DNA from: a virus
Length of the DNA stretch: 56,676 bases
IMG/VR virus record: IMGVR_UViG_3300031760_000087
Location: 1-56,676 of that record
Strand: one strand, 5' to 3'
Numbering within the stretch: position 1 is the stretch's first letter; each line of letters starts with the position of its first letter. Of this stretch, positions 2,066 through 56,676 are shown piece by piece. The translations under genes were made by a program, and so were the position numbers. Below the pieces are notes generated by a model. That model did not search any database, was not told where the DNA came from, and saw nothing but the letters and a program-made list of their open reading frames with translations.

Positions 2066-2536
2066 AAATCAAACCAACCAACCAACAGCACCAACAAAAA
2101 ACCAAATGAAAACAGATTTAAAACTAGTAAAAAATAGGTTGGTATTTCCTCTTTATTTTTTATTGGATGATATCAAACCTGCAGGTATTAAGCTCTAGCA
2201 GGTTGGATCATCTGAAGCCACTATATAAACTGCTGTAGTACTAGCAGTTAGTAAGAGGTAATTCTTACTATATACTAACAATATAGTATTATGTAAGAAC
2301 CGCCAGGACATCCGCAAGGCACACACACCGACCAACTGCAGCACCGACCAACAGCAGCAGCAACCGACCAACCGACCGACACAAGCAAAAAATAAGTTCC
2401 TCAAAAACAGGCTTCAAAATTCACCATTGTCGCATAGATTTTTTGTGGTTTTCGGTTTTGTGGAGTGGTTTGTGAGGGTGTTTTAGGGTTTTGTTTTTAT
2501 TTTTTTTGGTTTTTTCCGAAAAGGTTATATATTATA

Positions 2537-2570: not shown

Positions 2571-2795
2571 TTATTATGTGGGGGGTAGTTTTTATATAAT
2601 ATTGTGGATGTTATATAAAAACTGGGGGGTATATTGGGGCATTGAATATTACTGTTTTTTCAATATTGACTGTTTTTTTATTTGATCCTTTTGTCTTTTT
2701 CGATGTGGAAGGTTGTTATGTTCGTACACTTTACACTTGAAATTGTACTTTAAGGATGGTGAGGTATGTTTTGGGGCATATAGAGTACCATACAA

Positions 2796-2821
2796 GTGTA
2801 GATTAAATCTACACCATTTTT
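2796..2821 (+). terminator. Perfect hairpin GTGTAGAT-TAA-ATCTACAC followed by a T-run
   Basis: 8-bp stem, 3-nt loop, then CATTTTT. It lies immediately before locus A. Confidence 0.35.
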
Positions 2822-2824
2822 CGT

Positions 2825-2918
2825 GTTGAGTAAATTACCCCTTTTGTTGCATTTTTCACCCTTTTTGTTGCAGATTTTCAGTAAATGTTGAGTAAATTTG
2901 GTGTAATGTTGAGCATAT
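2825..2918 (+). repeat. Locus A: multi-repeat module (3 x GTTGAGTAAAT-like, 2 x CCCTTTT(T)GTTGCA), homologous to locus B at 36646-36718
   Basis: GTTGAGTAAAT at 2825 and 2887, and GTTGAGCATAT at 2908. Shares the 16-nt identity AAATGTTGAGTAAATT with locus B and has the same order and orientation. Confidence 0.9.
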
Positions 2919-3173
2919 CGAGAAGTTGAAAATTGCAGTTAGGTAATCTATATTCTATTTGGAGTATGAAAACCGATATGCAAGGTTTGACTATCGCTAT
3001 TTTTCGGCAGAAACTTAATTTTTTTTCAGAAAAATTTTTGTATATTTGAGGGGGTATTGAAGATTCTAGTTTTTTCAAGTGTCTGATTTTCTGATTTTGT
3101 CAGAGGTTTTTGGATTCTCTGATTTTTTGTTTTTGCAGATTTTTTTTGTTCGTTAGATAACTAACAATAGTGT

Positions 3174-3208
3174 GGTTATCCTGAATGTACCAACTTATTG
3201 TCTTGTGC
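3174..3208 (+). repeat. Dispersed repeat copy 2 (GGTTATCCTGAATGTACCAACTTATTGTCTTGTGC)
   Basis: Direct comparison with 2537-2570. Confidence 0.85.
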
Positions 3209-3582: not shown

Positions 3583-3916
3583 TCCAACATTCCAAGACCA
3601 TCTTGACTTGAATAATCGTGTAACCAAACTGGAATCAGAGAACAAGACACTCTTCAATGAGATAAGGGAAATCAAGGATGCTTTGGGTGAGAATACTGAT
3701 GCCTTGAATAATCTGAACAGTACCTTGAATGAGGAGCGAGTCAATAATACCAAGGCGATTAACGAGTTAACTACCTTGTTGCACGAGGAAAAGTTAAGAG
3801 TCGAGTTGATGAATGAGAAAGAATCCACAGAACTGGGCATCAGGAGTACGATTTATACTGGTGTCATTGTGGGTGTTGCCTTGTTGATTGTTGAGGGATT
3901 ATTGAGAGTATTGTGA
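3548..3916 (+). CDS. coiled-coil protein with C-terminal transmembrane helix (likely start ATG 3569)
   Basis: Heptad-like N/E/L-rich sequence ending in IYTGVIVGVALLIVEGLL. GGAG lies 5 nt before ATG 3569. Confidence 0.6.
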   Translation: MMIQRSWMEKNSPTFQDHLDLNNRVTKLESENKTLFNEIREIKDALGENTDALNNLNSTLNEERVNNTKAINELTTLLHEEKLRVELMNEKESTELGIRSTIYTGVIVGVALLIVEGLLRVL

Positions 3917-4389
3917 TTTTTATGACTGATGATGATAATAAGATTGAAGAGAGGAATATGGTTCAGGGGAAGAAGCCCCCACGATTCATTAAAGAACCTA
4001 TCCTTAAACAGAAGCTTTTGTCTATGATTGAAAAGGGCAATTATATCACTACTAGTTGTGAGGCTTGTGGTATTTCCCCATCTACTTTGGCTTATTGGAG
4101 AACCAAGGCTAGAGAGGGTAAAGAGCCTTATGTTAGTTTTTTTGCAGAGTTGCGAGAAGCCGAGCGAAAGGCTGAAACTGTTATTGCAGAGGGTATTTAT
4201 GATATCGGTTTCGATAAGAGGAATTGGACTGCCCTTGCTTGGTTATTGGAGAGGAAGAATCCTGAAAGATGGGGTAGGAAAGACAGAGTTGATGTTGCCT
4301 CTGATAAGGAGTTTAAGATTGAGATTACCAGCACTAAATCCGAGCATAAGATGAGTGAAGAGGATAGGAAGAACCTAGAAGAGGAATAG
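3913..4389 (+). CDS. terS: terminase small subunit candidate (HTH protein)
   Basis: Directly upstream of terL. HTH-like ITTSCEACGISPSTLAYWRTKA. Size is 158 aa. Confidence 0.6.
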   Translation: MIFMTDDDNKIEERNMVQGKKPPRFIKEPILKQKLLSMIEKGNYITTSCEACGISPSTLAYWRTKAREGKEPYVSFFAELREAERKAETVIAEGIYDIGFDKRNWTALAWLLERKNPERWGRKDRVDVASDKEFKIEITSTKSEHKMSEEDRKNLEEE

Positions 4390-4390
4390 T

Positions 4391-5608
4391 ATGCCAGTTG
4401 TTGAGTGGAAGTTGAGTGAGAAACAAGCCGAGTATTTGTATGATAAGCATAGGTATTTGGTTGTTGAAGGATCAGCAGGTAGTGGCAAGACCTTGTTTGC
4501 TTGTCATAAGGTTTTGATGTATGCTTTCACTCATAAGAATGCGAAGATTGGTGTTTTTAGGTTGACCTTGCCATCTTTGAAACAGACTGCTTGGTTGGAA
4601 ATCAGGCAATTATTGGATAAGTATGATTTGCCTTATCAGGAGAATAAAACCGAGGGTGTTATGACTTTCCCTAATGGTACAACCATCATATTCAGGGCTT
4701 TGGATGATATGAGGAAGATAAGAAGCCTCAATATGGATTTTATCTACTGTGAGCAGGCAGAAGAGATAGACAAGGATGTATTTATGGAATTAGACTCAAG
4801 GGTGAGAGGACAAGCGAGTATTGATGATTATGGTCAATTATTGCTTGTTGTTACTCCTGAAATGCAATCTCATTGGATTTATAAAAGATTTCACAAGCTT
4901 GAGGATGAGGATGCTTGTGTAGTGCATTTCCATTATACAGAGAATCCTTTTGTTGATGATAAGTATATTAAGATGGCAGAGGATAGGAAGAAGTTTGATT
5001 ATGATACTTATGCACGATTAACACTTGGTAAGTGGGGCTTGGTTGGTGACATTATTTATCAGAACTGGGATATCAAGGAATCCAGTAGGGGTTTCGAGTA
5101 TTATACTGGAGGTTCTGATTTCGGTTTCAACAACCCAAGTTGTTTCTTATTGGTTGGTTGGTTGGATAATGAGGCTTATGTTATTGATGAGGTTTACGAG
5201 CGAAACCTTATAAATTACCAATTCATTGGCAAGGTTAATGAGATGTTGAAGAGGAATAATCTCAACCCAAGCAACCTTGACACAGTATATGGTGATAAGG
5301 CAGAGCCTGACAGAATACAAGAATTCAATGAATATGGTTACAATATGGTTGGTGGAATCAAGGATGTTAATGCGAAGATCAATGCCACCAAATCAGTTAA
5401 AATCCACATAAGCCCCAAGTGTGTGAATACTATTAAGGAGATTGAGAATTACTGCTATCAAAGGGATAAGGATGGCAATGCTATTGATAAGCCGATAAAA
5501 TACAATGACCATAGTATGGATGCTCTTGGTTATTGTGTTTATGGTACTGTTGGAATCTTAAGCCCTGAACGAAGTATGCCTGAAAAGGCTACAATCTATG
5601 GATACTAA
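4391..5608 (+). CDS. terL: terminase large subunit
   Basis: Walker A is GSAGSGKT. The nuclease-half motifs GGSDFGFNNPS and HSMDALGY are typical of PBSX/Terminase_6-type TerL. Confidence 0.85.
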   Translation: MPVVEWKLSEKQAEYLYDKHRYLVVEGSAGSGKTLFACHKVLMYAFTHKNAKIGVFRLTLPSLKQTAWLEIRQLLDKYDLPYQENKTEGVMTFPNGTTIIFRALDDMRKIRSLNMDFIYCEQAEEIDKDVFMELDSRVRGQASIDDYGQLLLVVTPEMQSHWIYKRFHKLEDEDACVVHFHYTENPFVDDKYIKMAEDRKKFDYDTYARLTLGKWGLVGDIIYQNWDIKESSRGFEYYTGGSDFGFNNPSCFLLVGWLDNEAYVIDEVYERNLINYQFIGKVNEMLKRNNLNPSNLDTVYGDKAEPDRIQEFNEYGYNMVGGIKDVNAKINATKSVKIHISPKCVNTIKEIENYCYQRDKDGNAIDKPIKYNDHSMDALGYCVYGTVGILSPERSMPEKATIYGY

Positions 5609-35195: not shown

Positions 35196-35399
35196 TCATA
35201 CTCCCCAATTTCTCTTTTTTTATACTATATACAGATTCTGTAAATCAACCCACTCTTTTTACCACATTACTATATACAGAATCCATACTTTTAAATACTC
35301 ACAACCATATATAGTCTACTATACACTACTACACATCACTAGTGTATGATGACACAATTAACTATATATACAAGTTGCCACAGATAATATAGTAGGAAA

Positions 35400-36590
35400 G
35401 TGAGTTATATGACACAAGCAAAAACCAACCTTGAAATCATAAATGAATTTTGTGAGAAGAAACAACATTCCTCTCACACTAGAACAGTATACAAAACAAC
35501 TTTAATGAAATATGCACAGTTTAATAATATGAGTCTTTGCGACCTCATAAAAGAAGCTGAAGCCGAAGAGGACAAAGGCATCAGATGGAAAAGATGCAAT
35601 TTACTCAACAGACTTGAAAGTTTCAGAGCTTACTTGGTAAAGAATTTTTCAGAAAATACTGCCAAGCAAGACCTCTCACGAGTTAAGACTTTTTATAAAA
35701 GTTTTCGTATAGAGATTGGAGAATTAGATTATCTCTCCGACAAGGTTTACAATAAAAAACCAACCTTGGAATTTGAAGAGATAATCGACAAGGACACTAT
35801 CAGAAGAACCCTTGAATTATGCACTCCAGTATTGAAAAGTCTGATCCTATTCCAAACTTCTTCAGGTAGTGCCAAGGCAGAAGCCCTGAACCTAACCATT
35901 CAAGACTTCATAGATTCAGTAAGCAGTTACACAGATGCTACTGAATTAAAACAAGTCCTAAATGATTTAAATGGGAAATGTGTAATTCCAAAGTTTAAAA
36001 TTAAGAGGCAAAAAATTAACGAGTACTACTACACATTCTGTAGTCCTGAATGTACTCAACAAATCGTTGACTACTTGAAGATGAGAAGAGTCAGAAGTTT
36101 AGATGAGCCTCTCTTCAAGATAAGTGATGTCTACTACAAGCAGATGTTGATAAATCTCAACAACGAGCTTGGACTAGGAAAATGCTCCGATGGTTTCAAC
36201 AAATTAAGAAGCCACCAATTAAGGAAGTACTTTGCAACCACAATGATGAATGGAAAAGGCTGCAAATTATCAATGACAGATATTGACTTCCTGGAGGGCA
36301 GGGCATCAAAAGGCAGTAGGAAATCCTATTTCTTCCAGGACTCTGAACGATTACGAGTCAAATATGCAGAAAGTATGAACGCTATCTGCATTAATAAACA
36401 GTATGAAGTTGATGTTGTCTTGGATCAACTTGAAATCGTTGAAGTTGGTTCTCAAACCTACGAACAACGAAAGGTCAAGGAACAAGCAGAGCGAATAGCA
36501 ATGCTTGAATCAAGGTTGAGCGAAAGAAACATCTTAATTGAGGATATCGACAAAATTGTCGACCTCATTGATGCAATGGGAACTTTTTAA
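35400..36590 (+). CDS. int: tyrosine recombinase / integrase (likely start ATG 35409)
   Basis: HxxR box (KLRSHQLRKYFATT) and a C-terminal Tyr region (GRASKGSRKSYFFQ). The N-terminal SAM-like core-binding region is typical of phage integrases. Confidence 0.75.
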   Translation: MSYMTQAKTNLEIINEFCEKKQHSSHTRTVYKTTLMKYAQFNNMSLCDLIKEAEAEEDKGIRWKRCNLLNRLESFRAYLVKNFSENTAKQDLSRVKTFYKSFRIEIGELDYLSDKVYNKKPTLEFEEIIDKDTIRRTLELCTPVLKSLILFQTSSGSAKAEALNLTIQDFIDSVSSYTDATELKQVLNDLNGKCVIPKFKIKRQKINEYYYTFCSPECTQQIVDYLKMRRVRSLDEPLFKISDVYYKQMLINLNNELGLGKCSDGFNKLRSHQLRKYFATTMMNGKGCKLSMTDIDFLEGRASKGSRKSYFFQDSERLRVKYAESMNAICINKQYEVDVVLDQLEIVEVGSQTYEQRKVKEQAERIAMLESRLSERNILIEDIDKIVDLIDAMGTF

Positions 36591-36645
36591 TCTTCAATTT
36601 CCCATTATAACTTTTTTTAACAATTTTCAAATGGGGTCACCTCTT

Positions 36646-36718
36646 GTTGAGTAAATCGACCCTTTTGTTGCAAATTTCGAGCAAATGTTGAGTAAATTAG
36701 GGTAAATGTTGAGTAAAT
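36646..36718 (+). repeat. Locus B: multi-repeat module (3 x GTTGAGTAAAT, 1 x CCCTTTTGTTGCA) 56 nt downstream of int
   Basis: GTTGAGTAAAT at 36646, 36687 and 36708 (spacing 41 and 21 nt). Homologous to locus A. Confidence 0.9.
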
Positions 36719-37126
36719 CATCCATTTTGTAACACCCAAAAAAGCCAAACTGAACCCCTTATCGAAAAAGAAGACACGAGAAGTCTTAAACCCATTTTTT
36801 CCCTCTCAAAACACACACCCCTACTTTTTTTCTAATCATTAGTAAATTATAAAACAATCCACTAATGAATATTATATGATATATATTATATTTTTCCTTA
36901 TATATAAACTAACACTATAATATATTCAATCCCAAAATTGAACAAGATAACAAAATAGGAAACCAAAACTTGAACACGAAAAAATAAATCACCAGTATTT
37001 TATTTTCACGAGTCGACAAAGTAATAATCAACAAAATAATATCTTGAACAAATCCCTAAAACAAGCTCTAAACAAGGAATGGATAAGTATAAATAGGTTA
37101 TCAAACAAAAAGAAGATTACAAAAAT

Positions 37127-37284: not shown

Positions 37285-37455
37285 TTAAACTTTTTTCTCA
37301 TTTTCATATTCCAGTAAGCCTCTCTTCAGCAGGATTTCGCAGAAGTCTTGAAGATTCATATCATTCTGTATGGCTTCAGTATGTATTTGTTTTTTCAATT
37401 CCTTGCGAACTCTGATCCGGATGAAGCTTACTGGTTCATCGTTTGCAATTGGCAT
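37285..37455 (-). CDS. ribbon-helix-helix (CopG/Arc-like) DNA-binding protein, 56 aa; the only convincing minus-strand gene
   Basis: Hand translation gives MPIANDEPVSFIRIRVRKELKKQIHTEAIQNDMNLQDFCEILLKRGLLEYENEKKV. This is a beta-strand plus two-helix RHH pattern. GGAGG lies 11 nt upstream. It falls below the ORF-track size cutoff. Confidence 0.6.
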   Translation of the reverse strand: MPIANDEPVSFIRIRVRKELKKQIHTEAIQNDMNLQDFCEILLKRGLLEYENEKKV

Positions 37456-37480: not shown

Positions 37481-37654
37481 TTATTTGTGTCTTCTTATTT
37501 AAGTTTATATTTGTGTCATATACTCATAAATTATATGTGTCATAAAACACAAAGTTTATATATTATGAAGTACAACATTAAATTGAAGATGATTACCACA
37601 ATGACACAAATAATTAGTGGAATTTTTCGGAATGGGAGATGATTGTGTCTTTTG
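37481..37654. promoter_or_regulatory. Cluster of operator-like TTTGTGTCAT repeats in the divergent region
   Basis: Copies at 37481-37494, 37506-37523, 37531-37546, 37599-37613 (inverted) and 37641-37654. Related copies at 37226-37235 and in the arms of the 37127 palindrome. Confidence 0.5.
37553..37580 (+). promoter_or_regulatory. Conserved promoter copy 2 (TTTATATA + TATGAAGTACAAC)
   Basis: Same TATA box and downstream 13-mer as copies 1 and 3. Confidence 0.55.
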
Positions 37655-39625: not shown

Positions 39626-41824
39626 ATGGAAATGGAATGGGTAAAAATCGGTAGCAATACCTCTCTTTCCATCGAGTACAATAACTCCGATAAGTACAAT
39701 CTTATTTTAAAAAGGGGTAACAACACCCCTATTATCCTTTTGACAAGCAAGAAGAGTGTAACCGAACTACCGAAAAGTAGTGAGCTATACTCCACTCTTG
39801 ATAATTATCTTAACCCCTCCAACAAAAGGCATTTAAGATTCATTCAGAATCAGGAAGTTGTTGGTTCTTTGGATCAGATGCCATCTGATTCTGAAAGGGA
39901 GCAGTTTGTTTCCGATTATAAAGGATGGGTTGTGACTCAACTTGAAACACTTCGCAGTAAGGTGATGGAGTCCAGTAAGGAACAAGTGTTACTGGATAAG
40001 GATGCTCAAATCCAAGAACATCTGATTGCCGAAAAGCAGAGGATGGATGAGAAGTATCTTCCATTATTCCAAGAATTCAATGAGAGATGCAATGAGTATA
40101 ACTTCACACCTCTACAGTTTATCGCTCAAGTGGTACACGGCTTGGGTGTTGGACTCAATATTGAGGTTCTCCGAGCTTTCATTGGTTTCTTACAAACTTA
40201 TCTTGGATACAAAGGTACTAATGTTATCGCTGTTGGAAGCCAAGCAAGTGGTAAGAGTCACATCTTGGATTCTGCTCTTCGGTTTATCCCTGAAGAGCGA
40301 GTAGTGAAAGGGTCTATGACTCCTGCCTATTTCTTCAAGAAATATAACAGAATGGATTTAACTGGATATATTTTCTATATCGGTGACCTTGGAGGAGATA
40401 ACTCCAACGAGGACACCTTGAGGATGAGGGATATGCTCAAGGAATTATCCACAGATGGTTACATCAGCCGAGGTCTTATTGATAAGGATACTAATTCTCA
40501 AACAGAGGAATTCGTTACTGGTTATCCTGCTTTGGCATATACCACAGTACACGAGAGTTATATTAATGACCAAGAGAAATCAAGGTCTATTGTCATAACT
40601 CCACCAAGCATTGATAGTTACCAGTTGGCTATCTTTAAGGATGCTCAAAAGAATGCAGGAGTATTCAAGCCAGTAATCGAAAGGATTAAACGAGATTGCC
40701 TTTTGGTTCAAGCATATTGTTATCACCTCAAAGAAGAGGGAGATACCAAGAACATAGATATACTCAATACCTACTTTATGCAGGTAATTGAGAAGTTGAA
40801 GTCTAATGAGGATTTCAATCGTAAACTTGATGAGTTTAACAGTATCTTGAAGATTTGTTGTATATTAAACAATTGCTATATGACATCTCATAATTACTAC
40901 GAGAATGAGAGTAGTCTTATCCTTGCTAGTAAGCAAGATGTCATAAATGCTTTAGCGATTTACGATAACAATACATTACTTCCAACAGATTTGGTTCTGA
41001 TCCGAGGACTGTTATCAAAATACAAGACATTTGATATGCTTGATGATACATTGGATTCCGATGACCCTACCTATTTCGAGGATAATGTGAGGAAACACTT
41101 GAGGAATCACGATAATCCTGATTGGGATAGTGATATGTATAAGGAGTATTTCTTTACAGCGAGGACTATCAGGAATAAGTGGAATCGGCAGAGATGGTAT
41201 AGGAAGTCAAAAGAGAACTTGGAACTCAAGCTTAAGAGATTATATGAACAAGGGTTATTGATTCAAATCGATTATGACAATCGTGATCCAGTATATGCTC
41301 TGAATAAGGGCATTGATTTGATTATCGAGGCTACTGACCTTAACTGGAAAAAGAAAGAGTTAGTGGAGAAGTCCAACAAGGTTAATATCCTCAAATATCC
41401 AAGTGTCAAGGATGAGTATATGGCTTTCTTCGAGAAAGATATTCAAACCAACATCAAAGATAACAACTTTGGTCTTGAAGATGATTTGATTTATCACTCC
41501 ATTTGGGATGACCCAATCTATATGGAGGAAACCGAAACAATCGAAAAAGAAGTTTCCTTTGAGGAAATTGAAGAACCAGTTAAGGAAGTTGAAGAGAAAT
41601 CTGAAAACCTTGATTTAAAGGAACTTATCTTCAATATAATCAAGGAGAATGACTTCAAGACTTTGGAGGAAATCAAGGGAATAGTTAGTAAGAATCATAT
41701 GAGTTTCAATGAAGAGGCTGAAGTACTAGAATTCGAGAGAGAATTCAATAAGAACTTCAGAGAACTTAAAAAGGAAAAACGAGTAATGGTTAATGCTATC
41801 GGTGTTGTTGGGGTGGTTGAATGA
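39626..41824 (+). CDS. P-loop NTPase, replicative helicase / initiator candidate
   Basis: Walker A is GSQASGKSH and Walker B-like is YIFYIGDLGG. 732 aa, immediately upstream of the primase. Confidence 0.55.
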   Translation: MEMEWVKIGSNTSLSIEYNNSDKYNLILKRGNNTPIILLTSKKSVTELPKSSELYSTLDNYLNPSNKRHLRFIQNQEVVGSLDQMPSDSEREQFVSDYKGWVVTQLETLRSKVMESSKEQVLLDKDAQIQEHLIAEKQRMDEKYLPLFQEFNERCNEYNFTPLQFIAQVVHGLGVGLNIEVLRAFIGFLQTYLGYKGTNVIAVGSQASGKSHILDSALRFIPEERVVKGSMTPAYFFKKYNRMDLTGYIFYIGDLGGDNSNEDTLRMRDMLKELSTDGYISRGLIDKDTNSQTEEFVTGYPALAYTTVHESYINDQEKSRSIVITPPSIDSYQLAIFKDAQKNAGVFKPVIERIKRDCLLVQAYCYHLKEEGDTKNIDILNTYFMQVIEKLKSNEDFNRKLDEFNSILKICCILNNCYMTSHNYYENESSLILASKQDVINALAIYDNNTLLPTDLVLIRGLLSKYKTFDMLDDTLDSDDPTYFEDNVRKHLRNHDNPDWDSDMYKEYFFTARTIRNKWNRQRWYRKSKENLELKLKRLYEQGLLIQIDYDNRDPVYALNKGIDLIIEATDLNWKKKELVEKSNKVNILKYPSVKDEYMAFFEKDIQTNIKDNNFGLEDDLIYHSIWDDPIYMEETETIEKEVSFEEIEEPVKEVEEKSENLDLKELIFNIIKENDFKTLEEIKGIVSKNHMSFNEEAEVLEFEREFNKNFRELKKEKRVMVNAIGVVGVVE

Positions 41825-42780
41825 ACATCTACCAATTATTATTTCGTAGGAATCAACACTACCTCACTATCAGGAGCAGAGATGGAAGACCTGCTCAAAG
41901 ATACAAAGTACCTAACCACAGATTCCTGAAAAAAGCTTGGAGTAGACAGAACCCTGATGAGGATTTATATATTACAAAGTATCCTAAAGATGGAGTTATT
42001 TCAACTATCATCTTGGATTTCGATTCCGAGAATAATATTGAAAAAGCCTACGAAGACTGCTACAAGATATACAAATATCTTCAAACCAAAGGCACAAACT
42101 CTGTCATAGTATCTTCAGGGAACAAGGGCTACCACTTATATATCCAAATACCTGCCACCAACTTCAAACTTGTTGGCGATATTGAAGTTTCTGATCCAAA
42201 CTTGTTGTATGATATTTTCGTTCAAGATTTTATCAACAATGTGCATTGGAATTTTGAAACCTTGGATATGGTGAATCATCAAGCAGGATTAAAGGGCAAT
42301 ATCCGACTAATCAATTCATTCCACCCTAAAACCAAGAAACCCTGCAAAGCAGTACTTGGAGAATGGATTGAAGAGGATAATGAAGACTACTACTATCAAG
42401 CATTGAAGTACAAGGATATTATCTTCAAGAATGCTTACAAGAAGTATATGAAACAAGAAAGGGAGAAAATCGAAAAAAGAATGAATCGTATTAAAGAGCA
42501 TCAGAGCAGGAAATTCCTAGATAGTGATTATAATCCACTTGATGAATCCTGCAAAGATGTTATGCAAAACATATTCAATTTGGATAAGGTGACAAATAAG
42601 GCTAGTGGAATGTGGTGTTGTTGCCCATTTCACAATGACAGCAATCCGAGTATGGTAGTTACTGATGACTACTTTTACTGCAAGGGTTGTGGAAAGAAAG
42701 GAAATGTGTGGACTTTAATCAAGGAGGGTTATTATAACCCTACTGGAATTGATAATAGTTGTGTAAAGGTGGGAAAATGA
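41821..42780 (+). CDS. archaeo-eukaryotic primase-polymerase domain fused to a C-terminal DnaG-type CHC2 zinc finger
   Basis: AEP motifs are ILDFDSE (DxD), SSGNKGYHLY (sGxGxH) and NIRLINSFHPKT. The finger is CCCPFHNDSNPSMVV...YCKGCGKKGNVW. Confidence 0.7.
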   Translation: MNIYQLLFRRNQHYLTIRSRDGRPAQRYKVPNHRFLKKAWSRQNPDEDLYITKYPKDGVISTIILDFDSENNIEKAYEDCYKIYKYLQTKGTNSVIVSSGNKGYHLYIQIPATNFKLVGDIEVSDPNLLYDIFVQDFINNVHWNFETLDMVNHQAGLKGNIRLINSFHPKTKKPCKAVLGEWIEEDNEDYYYQALKYKDIIFKNAYKKYMKQEREKIEKRMNRIKEHQSRKFLDSDYNPLDESCKDVMQNIFNLDKVTNKASGMWCCCPFHNDSNPSMVVTDDYFYCKGCGKKGNVWTLIKEGYYNPTGIDNSCVKVGK

Positions 42781-49249: not shown

Positions 49250-49444
49250 ATGAGGGATGTGGAAGTAATCGGAGGAATCGGAGAAAAAAACAGTAACAAT
49301 AATACTCAATGGAAATTCCAAAACCGAATATACAATCCCCAAGGATTAAGCCCAAGCCTAACCACACTAGGCAGAGGCTACCTAACAATAATAGAGAGAG
49401 AGAGAGAGAGCAATGGAAGAAATAAAGTACTTATCATTATTTAG
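49250..49444 (+). pseudogene. stand-alone C5-methyltransferase target-recognition-like fragment ending in (AG)9
   Basis: VEVIGGIGEKNSNNNTQWKFQNRIYNPQGLSPSLTTLGRGYLTII resembles the v.vig...rvY...G.sPtLt..g segment of small C5-MTases. No catalytic motifs are attached. Confidence 0.45.
49393..49410. repeat. (AG)9 dinucleotide tract, 2 nt upstream of the methyltransferase ATG
   Basis: Counted directly. Confidence 0.95.
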
Positions 49445-50006
49445 TGGAATAGGAGGATTCGAGTATGGAATACAAAAAGCAAACACAAATTACAATTTCA
49501 AATGCATAGGATTTTCGGAGATAGATAAATATGCAACACAAATCTACAAAAAACACTATCCAAACCACCCTGAACTTGGGGATGTCACAAAAATCAACAC
49601 CGAAGACTTACCTGACTTTGACCTCTTGGTTGGAGGATTCCCTTGTCAAGCATTTTCTATTGCAGGACAGAGAAGAGGGTTTGATGACTGCCGAGGAACA
49701 TTATTCTTTGAAATCGCTAGGATTCTCAAAGACAAAAGACCCCGATATTTTCTACTTGAAAATGTTCGAGGTTTATTATCTCACAACAAGGGAGAAACTT
49801 TCCAGAGAATACTTGAAGTTCTCTCCGACTTGGGGTATAATGTTAAATGGCAGGTACTTAATAGCAAGGACTTCGGTGTTCCACAGAGGAGAGAGAGAGT
49901 GTTCATTAAAGGATATTTTGGAGAGGAATGTGGAGGAGAAGTATTACTTGTCGGAGGAGGCGAGTCGGAAGTTGATGTGGGATTAGGGAAGCCCAGTAGA
50001 GGATAA
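49413..50006 (+). CDS. dcm: DNA (cytosine-5) methyltransferase, N-terminal catalytic half (motifs I-VIII)
   Basis: Motifs FSGIGGF (I), GGFPCQAFSIAG (IV), ENVRGL (VI) and PQRRERVFI (VIII). The ORF ends without a TRD or motifs IX-X. Confidence 0.8.
   Translation: MEEIKYLSLFSGIGGFEYGIQKANTNYNFKCIGFSEIDKYATQIYKKHYPNHPELGDVTKINTEDLPDFDLLVGGFPCQAFSIAGQRRGFDDCRGTLFFEIARILKDKRPRYFLLENVRGLLSHNKGETFQRILEVLSDLGYNVKWQVLNSKDFGVPQRRERVFIKGYFGEECGGEVLLVGGGESEVDVGLGKPSRG
49885..49899. repeat. AGAG-(GA)5-G tract inside the motif VIII codons
   Basis: Counted directly. One extra GA unit would join the upstream frame to the SLKDILERNVEEKYYLSEEA frame. Confidence 0.9.
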
Positions 50007-50294: not shown

Positions 50295-50843
50295 ATGAAT
50301 TGGGAAAGAGTAGATAAATACTTCACAAGAGTCGGCAAGGATTGGTATGCCAGTTTAACAGAGAGAGAGAGAGTTTGTTATGCAGTAACAACACACATCG
50401 GCAGACAAAATAGTTTGGAGAAAAGAAGAGATACCTATGTTCTAGAGGTGAACGAAATGAAAGAAAAGGATGATGATTTTATTAAGCTCCGAGAAACCAC
50501 AAGCAAGGGTTACAAGGAAACCTACCCTTACGATGGAGTAGAGTTAAGCAGGAAAGGGTGTACTGTCAGAAGAGGAGTTAGCCACAATGGAATGACTGGG
50601 GCTTTGAACACTAGCGATGGCAGTTGGGGAACAATAAGCCCTGATTATCGGATAAGGAAACTGACTCCAACAGAGTGTGAAAGGTTGCAAGGATTCCCTG
50701 ATGGTTGGACAGAGTTTGGTGCAGATGGATCAAAGATAAGTGATACTCAAAGGTATAAGTGTTTAGGGAATGCAGTTACTACTAATGTTATTACTTGGAT
50801 TGTAGATAATTGGGATTTTAAGGTGGATAGTGATGGAGAATGA
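50295..50843 (+). CDS. dcm: DNA (cytosine-5) methyltransferase, C-terminal half (motif VIII-like start, TRD, motifs IX-X)
   Basis: TERERVCYAV, then the TRD-like SKGYKETYPYDGVELSRKGCTVRRGVSHNGMTGALNT, then RKLTPTECERLQGFPDGW (IX) and LGNAVTTNV (X). Confidence 0.75.
   Translation: MNWERVDKYFTRVGKDWYASLTERERVCYAVTTHIGRQNSLEKRRDTYVLEVNEMKEKDDDFIKLRETTSKGYKETYPYDGVELSRKGCTVRRGVSHNGMTGALNTSDGSWGTISPDYRIRKLTPTECERLQGFPDGWTEFGADGSKISDTQRYKCLGNAVTTNVITWIVDNWDFKVDSDGE
50360..50373. repeat. (AG)7 tract inside the C-terminal methyltransferase ORF (codons ERER)
   Basis: Counted directly. Confidence 0.9.
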
Positions 50844-53110: not shown

Positions 53111-53117
53111 ACAATTT

Positions 53118-53200
53118 ACGAAACATTTATATAGTATGAAGTACTAACTAATATTAACTACTAATAAGTAGTACAAAATACTAAAACGAAGTGATTATTA
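53118..53200 (+). promoter_or_regulatory. Conserved promoter plus leader, copy 3 (TTTATATA, TATGAAGTACTAAC, palindrome CTACTAATAAGTAG)
   Basis: Alignable with 355-431 over the TATA box, the 13-mer, the palindrome and the AAAACGAAGTGA ribosome-site context. Confidence 0.6.
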
Positions 53201-56019: not shown

Positions 56020-56166
56020 AACATCGTGGACAAAAAAACACACCACCCCATACCACCATCGTGGACAAAAAAGAAAAAAATAACACCCATCGTGGAGGCA
56101 AAAACCATCATCACCCATCGTGCAAAAAAACAAATAACACCCATCGTGGCAGAGTCTTCGTGGAGG
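56020..56166. repeat. Six iteron-like C(C)ATCGTGG repeats in an A/C-rich tract
   Basis: Copies at 56023, 56056, 56086, 56114, 56138 and 56155. The 16-mer ATAACACCCATCGTGG occurs twice. Confidence 0.85.
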
Positions 56167-56249
56167 AGGTTTAAAAAAAACATATAAATAAATATTATAA
56201 TTACTTTATAGCTATTTTAGGATCATCTGAAAATATATGCACCTGCAGG

Positions 56250-56676
56250 AATTCAGGAATTCAAGACCTGCTGGAATTCAGGAATTCAAGACCTGCTGGA
56301 ATTCAGGAATTCAAGACCTGCAGGAATTCAGGAATTCAAGACCTGCTGGAATTCAGGAATTCAAGACCTGCTGGAATTCAGGAATTCAAGACCTGCTGGA
56401 ATTCAGGAATTCAAGACCTGCAGGAATTCAGGAATTCAAGACCTGCTGGAATTCAGGAATTCAAGACCTGCAGGAATTCAGGAATTCAAGACCTGCAGGA
56501 ATTCAGGAATTCAAGACCTGCTGGAATTCAGGAATTCAAGACCTGCAGGAATTCAGGAATTCAAGACCTGCAGGAATTCAGGAATTCAAGACCTGCAGGA
56601 ATTCAGGAATTCAAGACCTGCAGGAATTCAGGAATTCAAGACCTGCAGGAATTCAGGAATTCAAGACCTGCAGGAA
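56250..56676. repeat. 25-bp tandem repeat array, 17 units plus 2 nt, with an A/T variant at one position
   Basis: Unit is AATTCAGGAATTCAAGACCTGC[A/T]GG. Variant order is T T A T T T A T A A T A A A A A A. The last 127 nt equal nt 1-127. Confidence 0.97.

Follow-up and report, generated by a model that had tools for sequence, protein, structure and literature searches.

The textbook iteron design is a run of contiguous repeats, each two helical turns long and with a specific core of about 16 bp, and in plasmids and phage-plasmids a distant second iteron cluster exerts control by looping or handcuffing. Multi-site arrays at two positions are likewise bound by one small protein in the P2 Cox/186 Apl and lambda OL/OR systems, one of the two positions lying by the integrase gene and attP. 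Bacillus phage SPP1 has a pair of origins some 13 kb from each other on its circular map, each consisting of repeats in direct orientation together with an AT-rich unwinding element; its gp38 protein binds both of them, and one occupies an intergenic stretch of the late region (PMC6316719). At the packaging (pac) sites of SPP1 and SF6, direct repeats lie within about 100 bp of intrinsically bent DNA that is wrapped by the small terminase, TerS (PMC4737164). We analyzed a stretch of 56,676 nt (IMG/VR record IMGVR_UViG_3300031760_000087, hereafter the window) from an uncultured tailed virus of rumen methanogens, that is, an archaeal virus, which contains two distant repeat loci, A and B. An original prediction made from the sequence had described these loci as matching modules and explained them as recombination sites, as attL/attR-like scars or as matched regulator-binding arrays. 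We found that A and B are a well-defined pair of iteron arrays, an element type already known, and that they are very probably protein-binding cis-elements rather than crossover sites or scars.

Architecture of the two arrays

The two loci share a 16-nt core, AAATGTTGAGTAAATT, at positions 2883-2898 (A) and 36683-36698 (B). The 11-mer GTTGAGTAAAT was found exactly at 2825, 2887, 36646, 36687 and 36708, always on the + strand, and its genome-wide count was six, the sixth copy being inverted within the integrase gene, versus an expectation of 0.07 under a zero-order model or 0.11 in first-order Markov simulations (maximum 1). We rejected the inverted copy, at 35599, as a coding coincidence; synonymous sites there are not conserved. 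Ungapped comparison of A with B gave 61/80 identities (76%), against a genome-wide mean of 21.1 (standard deviation 4.1, z ~9.7), and the best unrelated 80-mer in this comparison scored 39/80. The coordinates, these identities and the excess of GTTGAGTAAAT thus confirmed the predicted presence of two homologous, co-oriented loci, whose likeness is far above chance.

Both loci are built of head-to-tail units (Table 1), with periods, phased on GTTG, of 21/21/20/21 in A and 21/20/21 in B. In A, the units at 2825 and 2887 have intact GTTGAGTAAAT, those at 2846 and 2867 are decayed to GTTGCA, the latter being 20 nt long, and that at 2908 is partial (GTTGAGCATAT); in B, the units at 36646, 36687 and 36708 are intact and that at 36667 is decayed and 20 nt long. 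A is therefore longer than B by one 21-nt unit, and the original prediction was correct on this extra stretch as well as on the 16-nt identical core. Its further description of a shared ordered set of elements held insofar as the sequences are present, but they are really copies of one repeated 21-bp unit, of which the GTTGCA elements are decayed forms.

A logo built from 18 distinct intact units showed positions 1-10 to be essentially invariant (with one A at position 3), position 11 to be T in 15 units and A in three, position 12 to be T or C, positions 13-17 to be a free 5-bp spacer, and positions 18-21 to be T/A. The unit therefore spans 21 bp, or two helical turns, with about 16 conserved bp, (T/A)(T/A)T-GTTGAGTAAAT-(T/C), followed by five free ones, and both arrays show the iteron-type design, in which three or more direct repeats of 17-22 bp, set about two helical turns apart, each combine a conserved core with a short spacer of variable sequence. 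As A/T tracts recur in the arrays every 10-11 bp, the known behavior of A-tracts suggests that these 85-105-bp arrays should be intrinsically bent. The similarity between A and B ended at the array borders, their flanks being unrelated, and Rfam and tRNA scans found nothing at or near the arrays. Array B begins 56 bp past the integrase stop codon.

Both ends of the window fall in one 25-nt tandem array, as found in a repeat search, and the relative L083 reads through the end-to-end junction; because of this it is credible from the sequence that the window is a circular genome. A and B are 33,800 bp apart from start to start, with a remaining arc of about 22.9 kb, and profile matches and translations showed the gene content of the two arcs to be as originally claimed. 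The arc from A to B carries TerS, the large terminase (TerL), virion genes, a C39-like peptidase and the integrase, and the other arc carries a P-loop Rep-like protein, a primase, a dCTP deaminase, an ERCC4-HhH nuclease, a C5 methylase and the 25-nt tandem array. All large genes are on the + strand, and the lone minus-strand gene is a 56-aa open reading frame (37285-37455). The integrase has homologues named in Methanobrevibacter and TerL has homologues in Methanobrevibacter and Methanobacterium; as judged by homology, the host lineage of the virus is Methanobrevibacter. The lysis gene encodes the C39-like peptidase, which has a faint pseudomurein-binding repeat.

Table 1. Coordinates of the arrays, of nearby elements and genes in the window, and of arrays in distant relatives
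Feature	Position	Strand	Details
Array A	2825-2928	+	Five head-to-tail units, at 2825, 2846, 2867, 2887 and 2908
Array B	36646-36728	+	Four head-to-tail units, at 36646, 36667, 36687 and 36708
Imperfect palindrome TTACACTTGAAATTGTAC	2731-2748	+	About 77-90 bp upstream of array A; single occurrence in the window
Perfect hairpin GTGTAGATT-A-AATCTACAC	2796-2814	+	10 bp upstream of array A; kept in close relatives
Inverted repeat AAGAC-N7-GTCTT	36771-36787	+	About 45 bp downstream of array B; arms conserved, 7-nt spacer different in L091
AT-rich island	36845-36924		Begins 120 bp and ends 200 bp downstream of array B; ranks second among the least stable 80-bp duplexes of the genome
Small terminase TerS; large terminase TerL	3913-4389; 4391-5608	+	PHROG 4102, Pfam Terminase_3; about 1 kb downstream of array A
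Tyrosine recombinase (integrase)	35400-36590	+	PHROG 1
Small ribbon-helix-helix (RHH)-like protein	37285-37455	-	RHH from sequence pattern; converges on array B
Putative replication initiator/helicase (Rep-like)	39626-41824	+	P-loop GSQASGKS; homologues carry PF27228
Primase	41821-42780	+
Array of L118			TerL 65% identical to the window's; 5 x 21-bp array, core TTTCTGTCAAT
Array of L124			TerL 68% identical to the window's; 4 x TGTACAAACTT at 21-bp phase, plus one L118-like unit
Cluster of vir249 (BK063678.1, complete genome)	2340-2499		TerL 49% identical; 9 x TGTGTCA, one cluster, irregular spacing

Conservation and ancestry of the arrays

We retrieved 11 locus-A sequences, with 81-94% nucleotide identity, and six locus-B sequences from related viruses, some of them being one contig fetched twice. 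Locus A had five units in all retrieved relatives, with units 1 and 4 intact, and all six B loci had four units, the first of them about 56 bp beyond the stop codon of the integrase gene, locus B being conserved in L090, L091, L160, L166 and L490. The GTTGCA units of the window were intact elsewhere: units 2 and 3 of A in L085 read GTTGAGTAAAT, and unit 2 of B in L091 reads GTTGAGTAAAA, which identifies what had been taken for CCCTTTTGTTGCA elements as decayed 21-bp units. In array B of L091 all four units had the core GT(T/A)GAGTAAA(A/T), with unit 4 reading GTAGAGTAAAA. Divergence between the window and L091 was about 16% in the flanks, about 60% in the spacers and about 9% in the intact cores, and the spacer types TAGGGTAAAT and TCACCCTTTT changed places between units. 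Such a pattern of divergence would be expected for a binding site under selection inside a repeat array that undergoes turnover.

The derived 20-nt GTTGCA unit is common to unit 3 of A and unit 2 of B, and locus A of L085 and locus B of L091 consist of intact units only, suggesting that A and B may exchange sequence. An attempt to tie L085 and L091 to one lineage failed, so that this co-variation argument is suggestive only. Scans of IMG/VR, JGI metagenomes and GTDB with the 16-mer and a two-unit pattern gave, among the matches listed, no Methanobrevibacter chromosome; those matches were mostly chance or unrelated bacterial-phage 10-mer repeats, with few relatives among them. A search of IMG/VR with the integrase gave no match.

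More distant lineages carry arrays or clusters upstream of the late (terminase) operon, with cores unlike that of the window (L118, L124 and vir249; Table 1). When the integrase-regulator-replication junction was examined in L127, L129, L130, L131, L489 and vir249, no array was found at the position of B, and all six keep the order peptidase, integrase, regulator and replication genes. The occurrence of A-type arrays upstream of the late operon in distant lineages, together with the absence of B there, indicates that A is ancestral and that B is a clade-specific extra copy that has since been retained. A motif search for a second array in genomes of the L118 and L124 types yielded one further A-type locus only.

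Candidate functions of the arrays

Because of the way the units are built, and because there are two arrays, we tentatively favor the possibility that A and B are origin-type iterons bound by a replication initiator, for which oriL and oriR of SPP1, as two distant modules bound by one initiator, form an exact precedent. In this model, one virus-encoded sequence-specific protein would bind the phased head-to-tail units of both arrays, each unit presenting its conserved stretch of about 16 bp on one helix face and then the free 5-bp spacer. B, which is upstream of the replication genes and beside an easily melted AT-rich island, would be the initiation site, and A, the older array, which heads the packaging/late operon, would be a second origin or else a fork-arrest or control site. 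B would have arisen within the clade by the copying of A-type units, with later gene conversion between A and B. The surroundings of the arrays are origin-like in that a conserved duplex, the second least stable in the genome, lies by B, a core-like hairpin abuts A, and the Rep-like protein may end in a winged helix. The C-terminal ~170 aa of this protein are confined to the clade, and the final ~70 residues model as helix-strand-helix-helix-hairpin with a pLDDT of 64-79, so that we assign the predicted winged-helix-like topology with moderate confidence.

Several observations weigh against an origin function. B is 2.9 kb and A at least 19 kb from rep, and neither linkage to the initiator gene nor co-variation with it was found; L130, L131 and L489, with the same Rep family, lack such an array both within 10 kb of rep and after the integrase gene. 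The array that is widely conserved is A, about 1 kb from terS, and the presence of A-type arrays follows the type of TerS. The island by B averages -0.97 kcal/mol per nearest-neighbor step, compared with -1.25 for the genome (80-bp windows), is conserved in L091 and might act as a DNA-unwinding element or as a cluster of promoters; as its conserved sequence is rich in TATA-like boxes, it may simply be a promoter, and no markedly unstable duplex was seen beside A. Binding of Rep to A and B and initiation at these sites, and with them the identity of the binding protein and its link to replication, are what we infer from the sequences. A plasmid search with Rep returned nothing. The 25-nt tandem repeat of the window, AATTCAGGAATTCAAGACCTGCAGG, comes in about 26 copies (56141-56676 and 1-127), an array also present in L083, and the least stable 80-bp duplex of the genome (162-241) lies directly after it; these two elements are a candidate for an alternative origin or a centromere-like site.

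Comparative linkage favors TerS as the binding protein, and the arrays would then be TerS recognition sites, a somewhat unlikely explanation in our estimate but the main rival of the origin reading. Array A would be a pac/cosB-like site at which a helix-turn-helix ring of TerS wraps about 100 bp of bent DNA, with TerL cutting nearby, perhaps at the palindrome at 2731-2748, and B would be a clade-specific second TerS site, serving as a packaging start or as a TerS-dependent control point by the integrase gene. In four lineages terS is preceded on its own strand, at a distance of 0.6-1.5 kb, by an A-type array, and the TerS proteins of these lineages are homologous (33-55% identity) and share an N-terminal GNY(I/L)(S/T)T helix-turn-helix. 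The array-less L121 has a TerL that is 58-59% identical, and a TerS that is only 21-25% identical to that of three of the four lineages, its match to the TerS of the window being short and local. One TerS type thus accompanies the array in 4/4 array-bearing lineages, albeit in a small sample, and placement of a cis site beside the gene of its binder is the usual modular logic. The phased A/T tracts and the assignment of TerL to the headful Terminase_3/PBSX family agree with this explanation, as does the palindrome TTACACTTGAAATTGTAC, which is conserved among lineages with TerL 65-68% identical, being also upstream of the A-type array in L118 and, with one substitution (TTACAGTTG), in L124. However, contiguous head-to-tail 21-bp units with a specific 16-bp core are atypical of known pac/cosB sites, paired pac sites in a single genome are unusual, and two genes separate A from terS. 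Neither the palindrome nor the A-side hairpin is present near B, which is 24-33 kb from terS, and the TerS correlation comes from five lineages and could be explained by exchange of sequence in whole blocks. We consider it distinctly unlikely that the arrays are operator- or enhancer-like sites of one transcription regulator, A heading the late operon and B the early/replication block, as in lambda OL/OR and P2 Cox/186 Apl. Each array is co-oriented with an operon that starts 0.4-0.9 kb downstream, TATA-like boxes follow each array by 110-190 bp, and B adjoins a lysogeny module of integrase and RHH-like genes, but no array overlaps a B recognition element (BRE) or TATA box, the nearest TATA-like box being more than 100 bp away. 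Moreover, the distance from the array to the first late gene varies from 70 to 540 bp across lineages, B lies between convergent genes, the promoter regions have other, clearly operator-like motifs (TTGTGTCA and TTGAACA), and co-directional relatives lack B. The originally proposed matched regulator-binding arrays were right in form (21-bp phasing, an invariant core, fast-evolving spacers and a kept position), and no link to late and lysogeny transcription was seen. A Zn-ribbon transcription factor whose gene follows the array in L118 and L124 was also considered as the binder and rejected; it is absent here and present in the array-less L121.

The original prediction had further suggested that A and B are crossover sites at which the circle resolves into two, that the genome is a cointegrate, or that the loci are attL/attR scars. 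In its fullest form, reversible programmed exchange at A and B, whether homologous or recombinase-assisted, would yield a plasmid-like circle of 22.9 kb and a morphogenesis-lysis-integrase circle of 33.8 kb, making this a bipartite or cointegrate archaeal virus. Direct repeats do stand at both module boundaries, a tyrosine recombinase gene adjoins B, the Rep family carries a domain named for a Methanothermobacter plasmid protein (PF27228), and homologous recombination across direct repeats of 80-100 bp is physically possible. Yet A and B consist of direct repeats only, with no inverted-repeat (dyad) core and no 6-8-bp overlap region, their similarity is confined to the arrays, and an identity of only 76% with a 21-nt indel argues against a freshly regenerated attachment (att) core. 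Parental flanks were found on both sides in 17/17 related loci retrieved (11 A, 6 B), with no A/B hybrid junction among them, the power of the survey being limited and minority forms being invisible in assemblies. A 37.9-kb contig should, from its length and its end, hold A and B in parental order (~150 to 38,068), its B end alone having been read. Relatives lacking one copy in the same gene order had been named in advance as speaking against two-circle resolution, and six B-less relatives closely match that description and retain the same junction. Neither product circle would be viable alone, and a search of 185,579 species-representative genomes found no copy. We therefore regard exchange at A and B, and equally a scar, as extremely improbable, and the exotic reading of a genome that resolves into two circles is removed by this result. 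Also improbable, though less so, is that B is an attP arm, with arm-type or directionality-factor sites near a core at TTTTCAAATG or AAGAC-N7-GTCTT, and that one architectural factor binds there and, as P2 Cox/186 Apl do, at a second locus, A. B does lie 56 bp past the integrase stop codon in 6/6 clade members, TTAGTTTTCAAATGCTCT is kept beside the integrase gene in L130, L489 and the integrated L092 elements (the window having TTTTCAAATG), and the AAGAC/GTCTT arms are conserved around a lineage-specific spacer. However, the modeled integrase (pLDDT 88) is a two-domain enzyme of the Xer/Cre kind, with a helical core-binding domain from residue 10, a catalytic domain, and a C-terminal beta-hairpin and long helix, its best structural matches in the PDB being XerA, XerH, IntI and Cre, and no arm-binding domain was seen in the model, which speaks against crossover sites and scars as well. 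PDB sequence searches with the integrase and Rep were empty. Homologous integrases in relatives have no adjoining array, the ancestral array belongs to the late operon and not to the integrase gene, and no integrated copy was found in the genomes searched.

Neighboring elements and comparison with known systems

Near array A, the 5' arm of the hairpin, GTAGATTAAAT, agrees with the array core at 9/11 positions; L118 and L124 have a different hairpin, TTAACCnnGTTAA, in its place. The sequence TACACTTG (2732-2739), in the palindrome region, is able to pair with CAAGTGTA (2793-2800). A 42-nt direct repeat (2529-2570 and 3167-3208, 83% identical; CCTGAATGTACCAA..TGTCTTGTGC) brackets array A, and since its first copy comes right after a TATA-like box, the repeat may represent a leader common to two transcripts, or a small RNA. 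Between two G6 runs, the segment 2580-2629 holds a perfect 11-bp inverted repeat, TTTTTATATAA (2589-2599) and TTATATAAAAA (2611-2621), which could form a cruciform or represent two TATA boxes in divergent orientation. Several independent metagenomic contigs from relatives break off in G6-G7 runs or in the tandem array (window ~2614 and ~38050; L118 ~6908). We considered the ends clustered upstream of A as physical genome ends and rejected this, as they fall at G-runs and at points where variable and conserved sequence meet; the ends at G-runs are probably assembly breaks that mimic genome termini.

The inverted repeat downstream of B has no equivalent at A. Boxes of the sequence TTGTGTCA at 35350, 35410 and 37602 (- strand) and 37511 (+ strand), along with TGTGTCA at 37536 (+ strand), surround the divergent RHH/early promoter region and also occur upstream of the integrase gene; the TTGTGTCA boxes are likely lysogeny-switch operators. 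The stretch from B to the RHH-like gene holds three TTGAACA boxes, at 36938-36944, 36970-36976 and 37044-37050, which are conserved in L091; related TGAACA-N-TGTTCA palindromes flank the TATA box of the L118 late promoter, and TGAACA boxes lie 3' of the integrase gene in L127 and L129. A Pfam search with the product of 37285-37455 gave no significant match, and relatives have a small MazE/AbrB-like gene where the window has the RHH-like gene.

Just 5' of array B is TTTTCAAATG (36624-36633). The related TTAGTTTTCAAATGCTCT is conserved beside the integrase gene in L130 (~7720), L489 (~7710) and L092 (7105-7122), lying 3' of that gene in free genomes and 5' of it in elements integrated beside host eIF-1A, and TTAGTTTTCAAATGCTCT/TTTTCAAATG may be an att core or a site bound by the integrase. 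The palindrome 5' of array A begins with the 12 nt TTACACTTGAAA, which are also found just 5' of the integrase gene in the integrated L092-L097 (L092 7080-7091), with an inverted copy 10.6 kb away (L093 14160-14171). We considered TTACACTTGAAA as an att core, but its second copy stands in inverted orientation and 12-mers also match by chance, so that its recurrence may be fortuitous. Non-coding tRNA T-arm-like elements (GGTTCGATTCC) or acceptor/T-arm minihelices, one to five per relative, were seen in L131 (8178-8840), L130 (9245-9336) and vir249 (2499-2535), and ARAGORN called no tRNA at these elements.

Elsewhere in the window, the C5 cytosine methyltransferase is encoded in two open reading frames, 49413-50006 and 50295-50843, which are the N- and C-terminal halves of PF00145 with about 290 bp between them. 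A promoter-plus-start module, AAAnnTTTAWATAnTATGAAGTAC, occurs in three copies (351-383, 37544-37576 and 53115-53147), suggesting that small genes with leaderless or short-leader transcripts may have a common promoter type.

In the rumen and gut, methane is produced mainly by Methanobrevibacter, and to our knowledge no replication, packaging or integration cis-site has been mapped in their tailed viruses. A and B, which are sharply defined and conserved in the clade, are the clearest cis-site candidates of this virus group and the first candidate origin or pac sites. As the cores are lineage-specific, they should reveal the binding protein, and its identity, whether Rep, TerS or another protein, would place an origin or a pac site for use in methanogen vectors or transduction tools.

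Comparison with known systems shows partial likeness to several. The sites of P2 Cox/186 Apl and lambda OL/OR either recur about every 10.5 bp or are dyad-symmetric, and they overlap promoters or an att arm, whereas the arrays described here have a 21-bp period and no promoter overlap, and their ancestral copy lies away from the integrase gene. Like pacL-pacR of SPP1/SF6 and the R sites of lambda cosB, array A comprises repeats upstream of terS in about 100 bp of bent DNA and is co-inherited with the type of TerS. However, known pac/cosB sites are few, spaced or inverted boxes that overlap or abut terS; here a contiguous run lies 1 kb upstream, and a second copy of the array stands by the integrase gene. 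The iterons of P1 incC/incA, F, R6K, RK2 and P4 ori/crr resemble A and B in having four to five direct repeats at a spacing of about two turns, each with a core and a variable spacer. In contrast to those clusters, which are 1-5 kb apart, A and B are 23 and 34 kb apart and neither flanks rep, and no sign of plasmid maintenance was seen. The arrays differ from the SPP1 origins in that the host is archaeal, the initiator is unrelated (P-loop, PF27228), the iterons are contiguous 21-bp units, the module near the replication genes lies outside the initiator gene, and a clear AT-rich island is found beside B only. Nevertheless, as with oriL and oriR of SPP1, two distant homologous direct-repeat modules, which one protein would bind, are placed on a circular map, the first close to the replication genes and the second in a late-region intergenic segment, in a genome packaged by a headful terminase of the Terminase_3 type.

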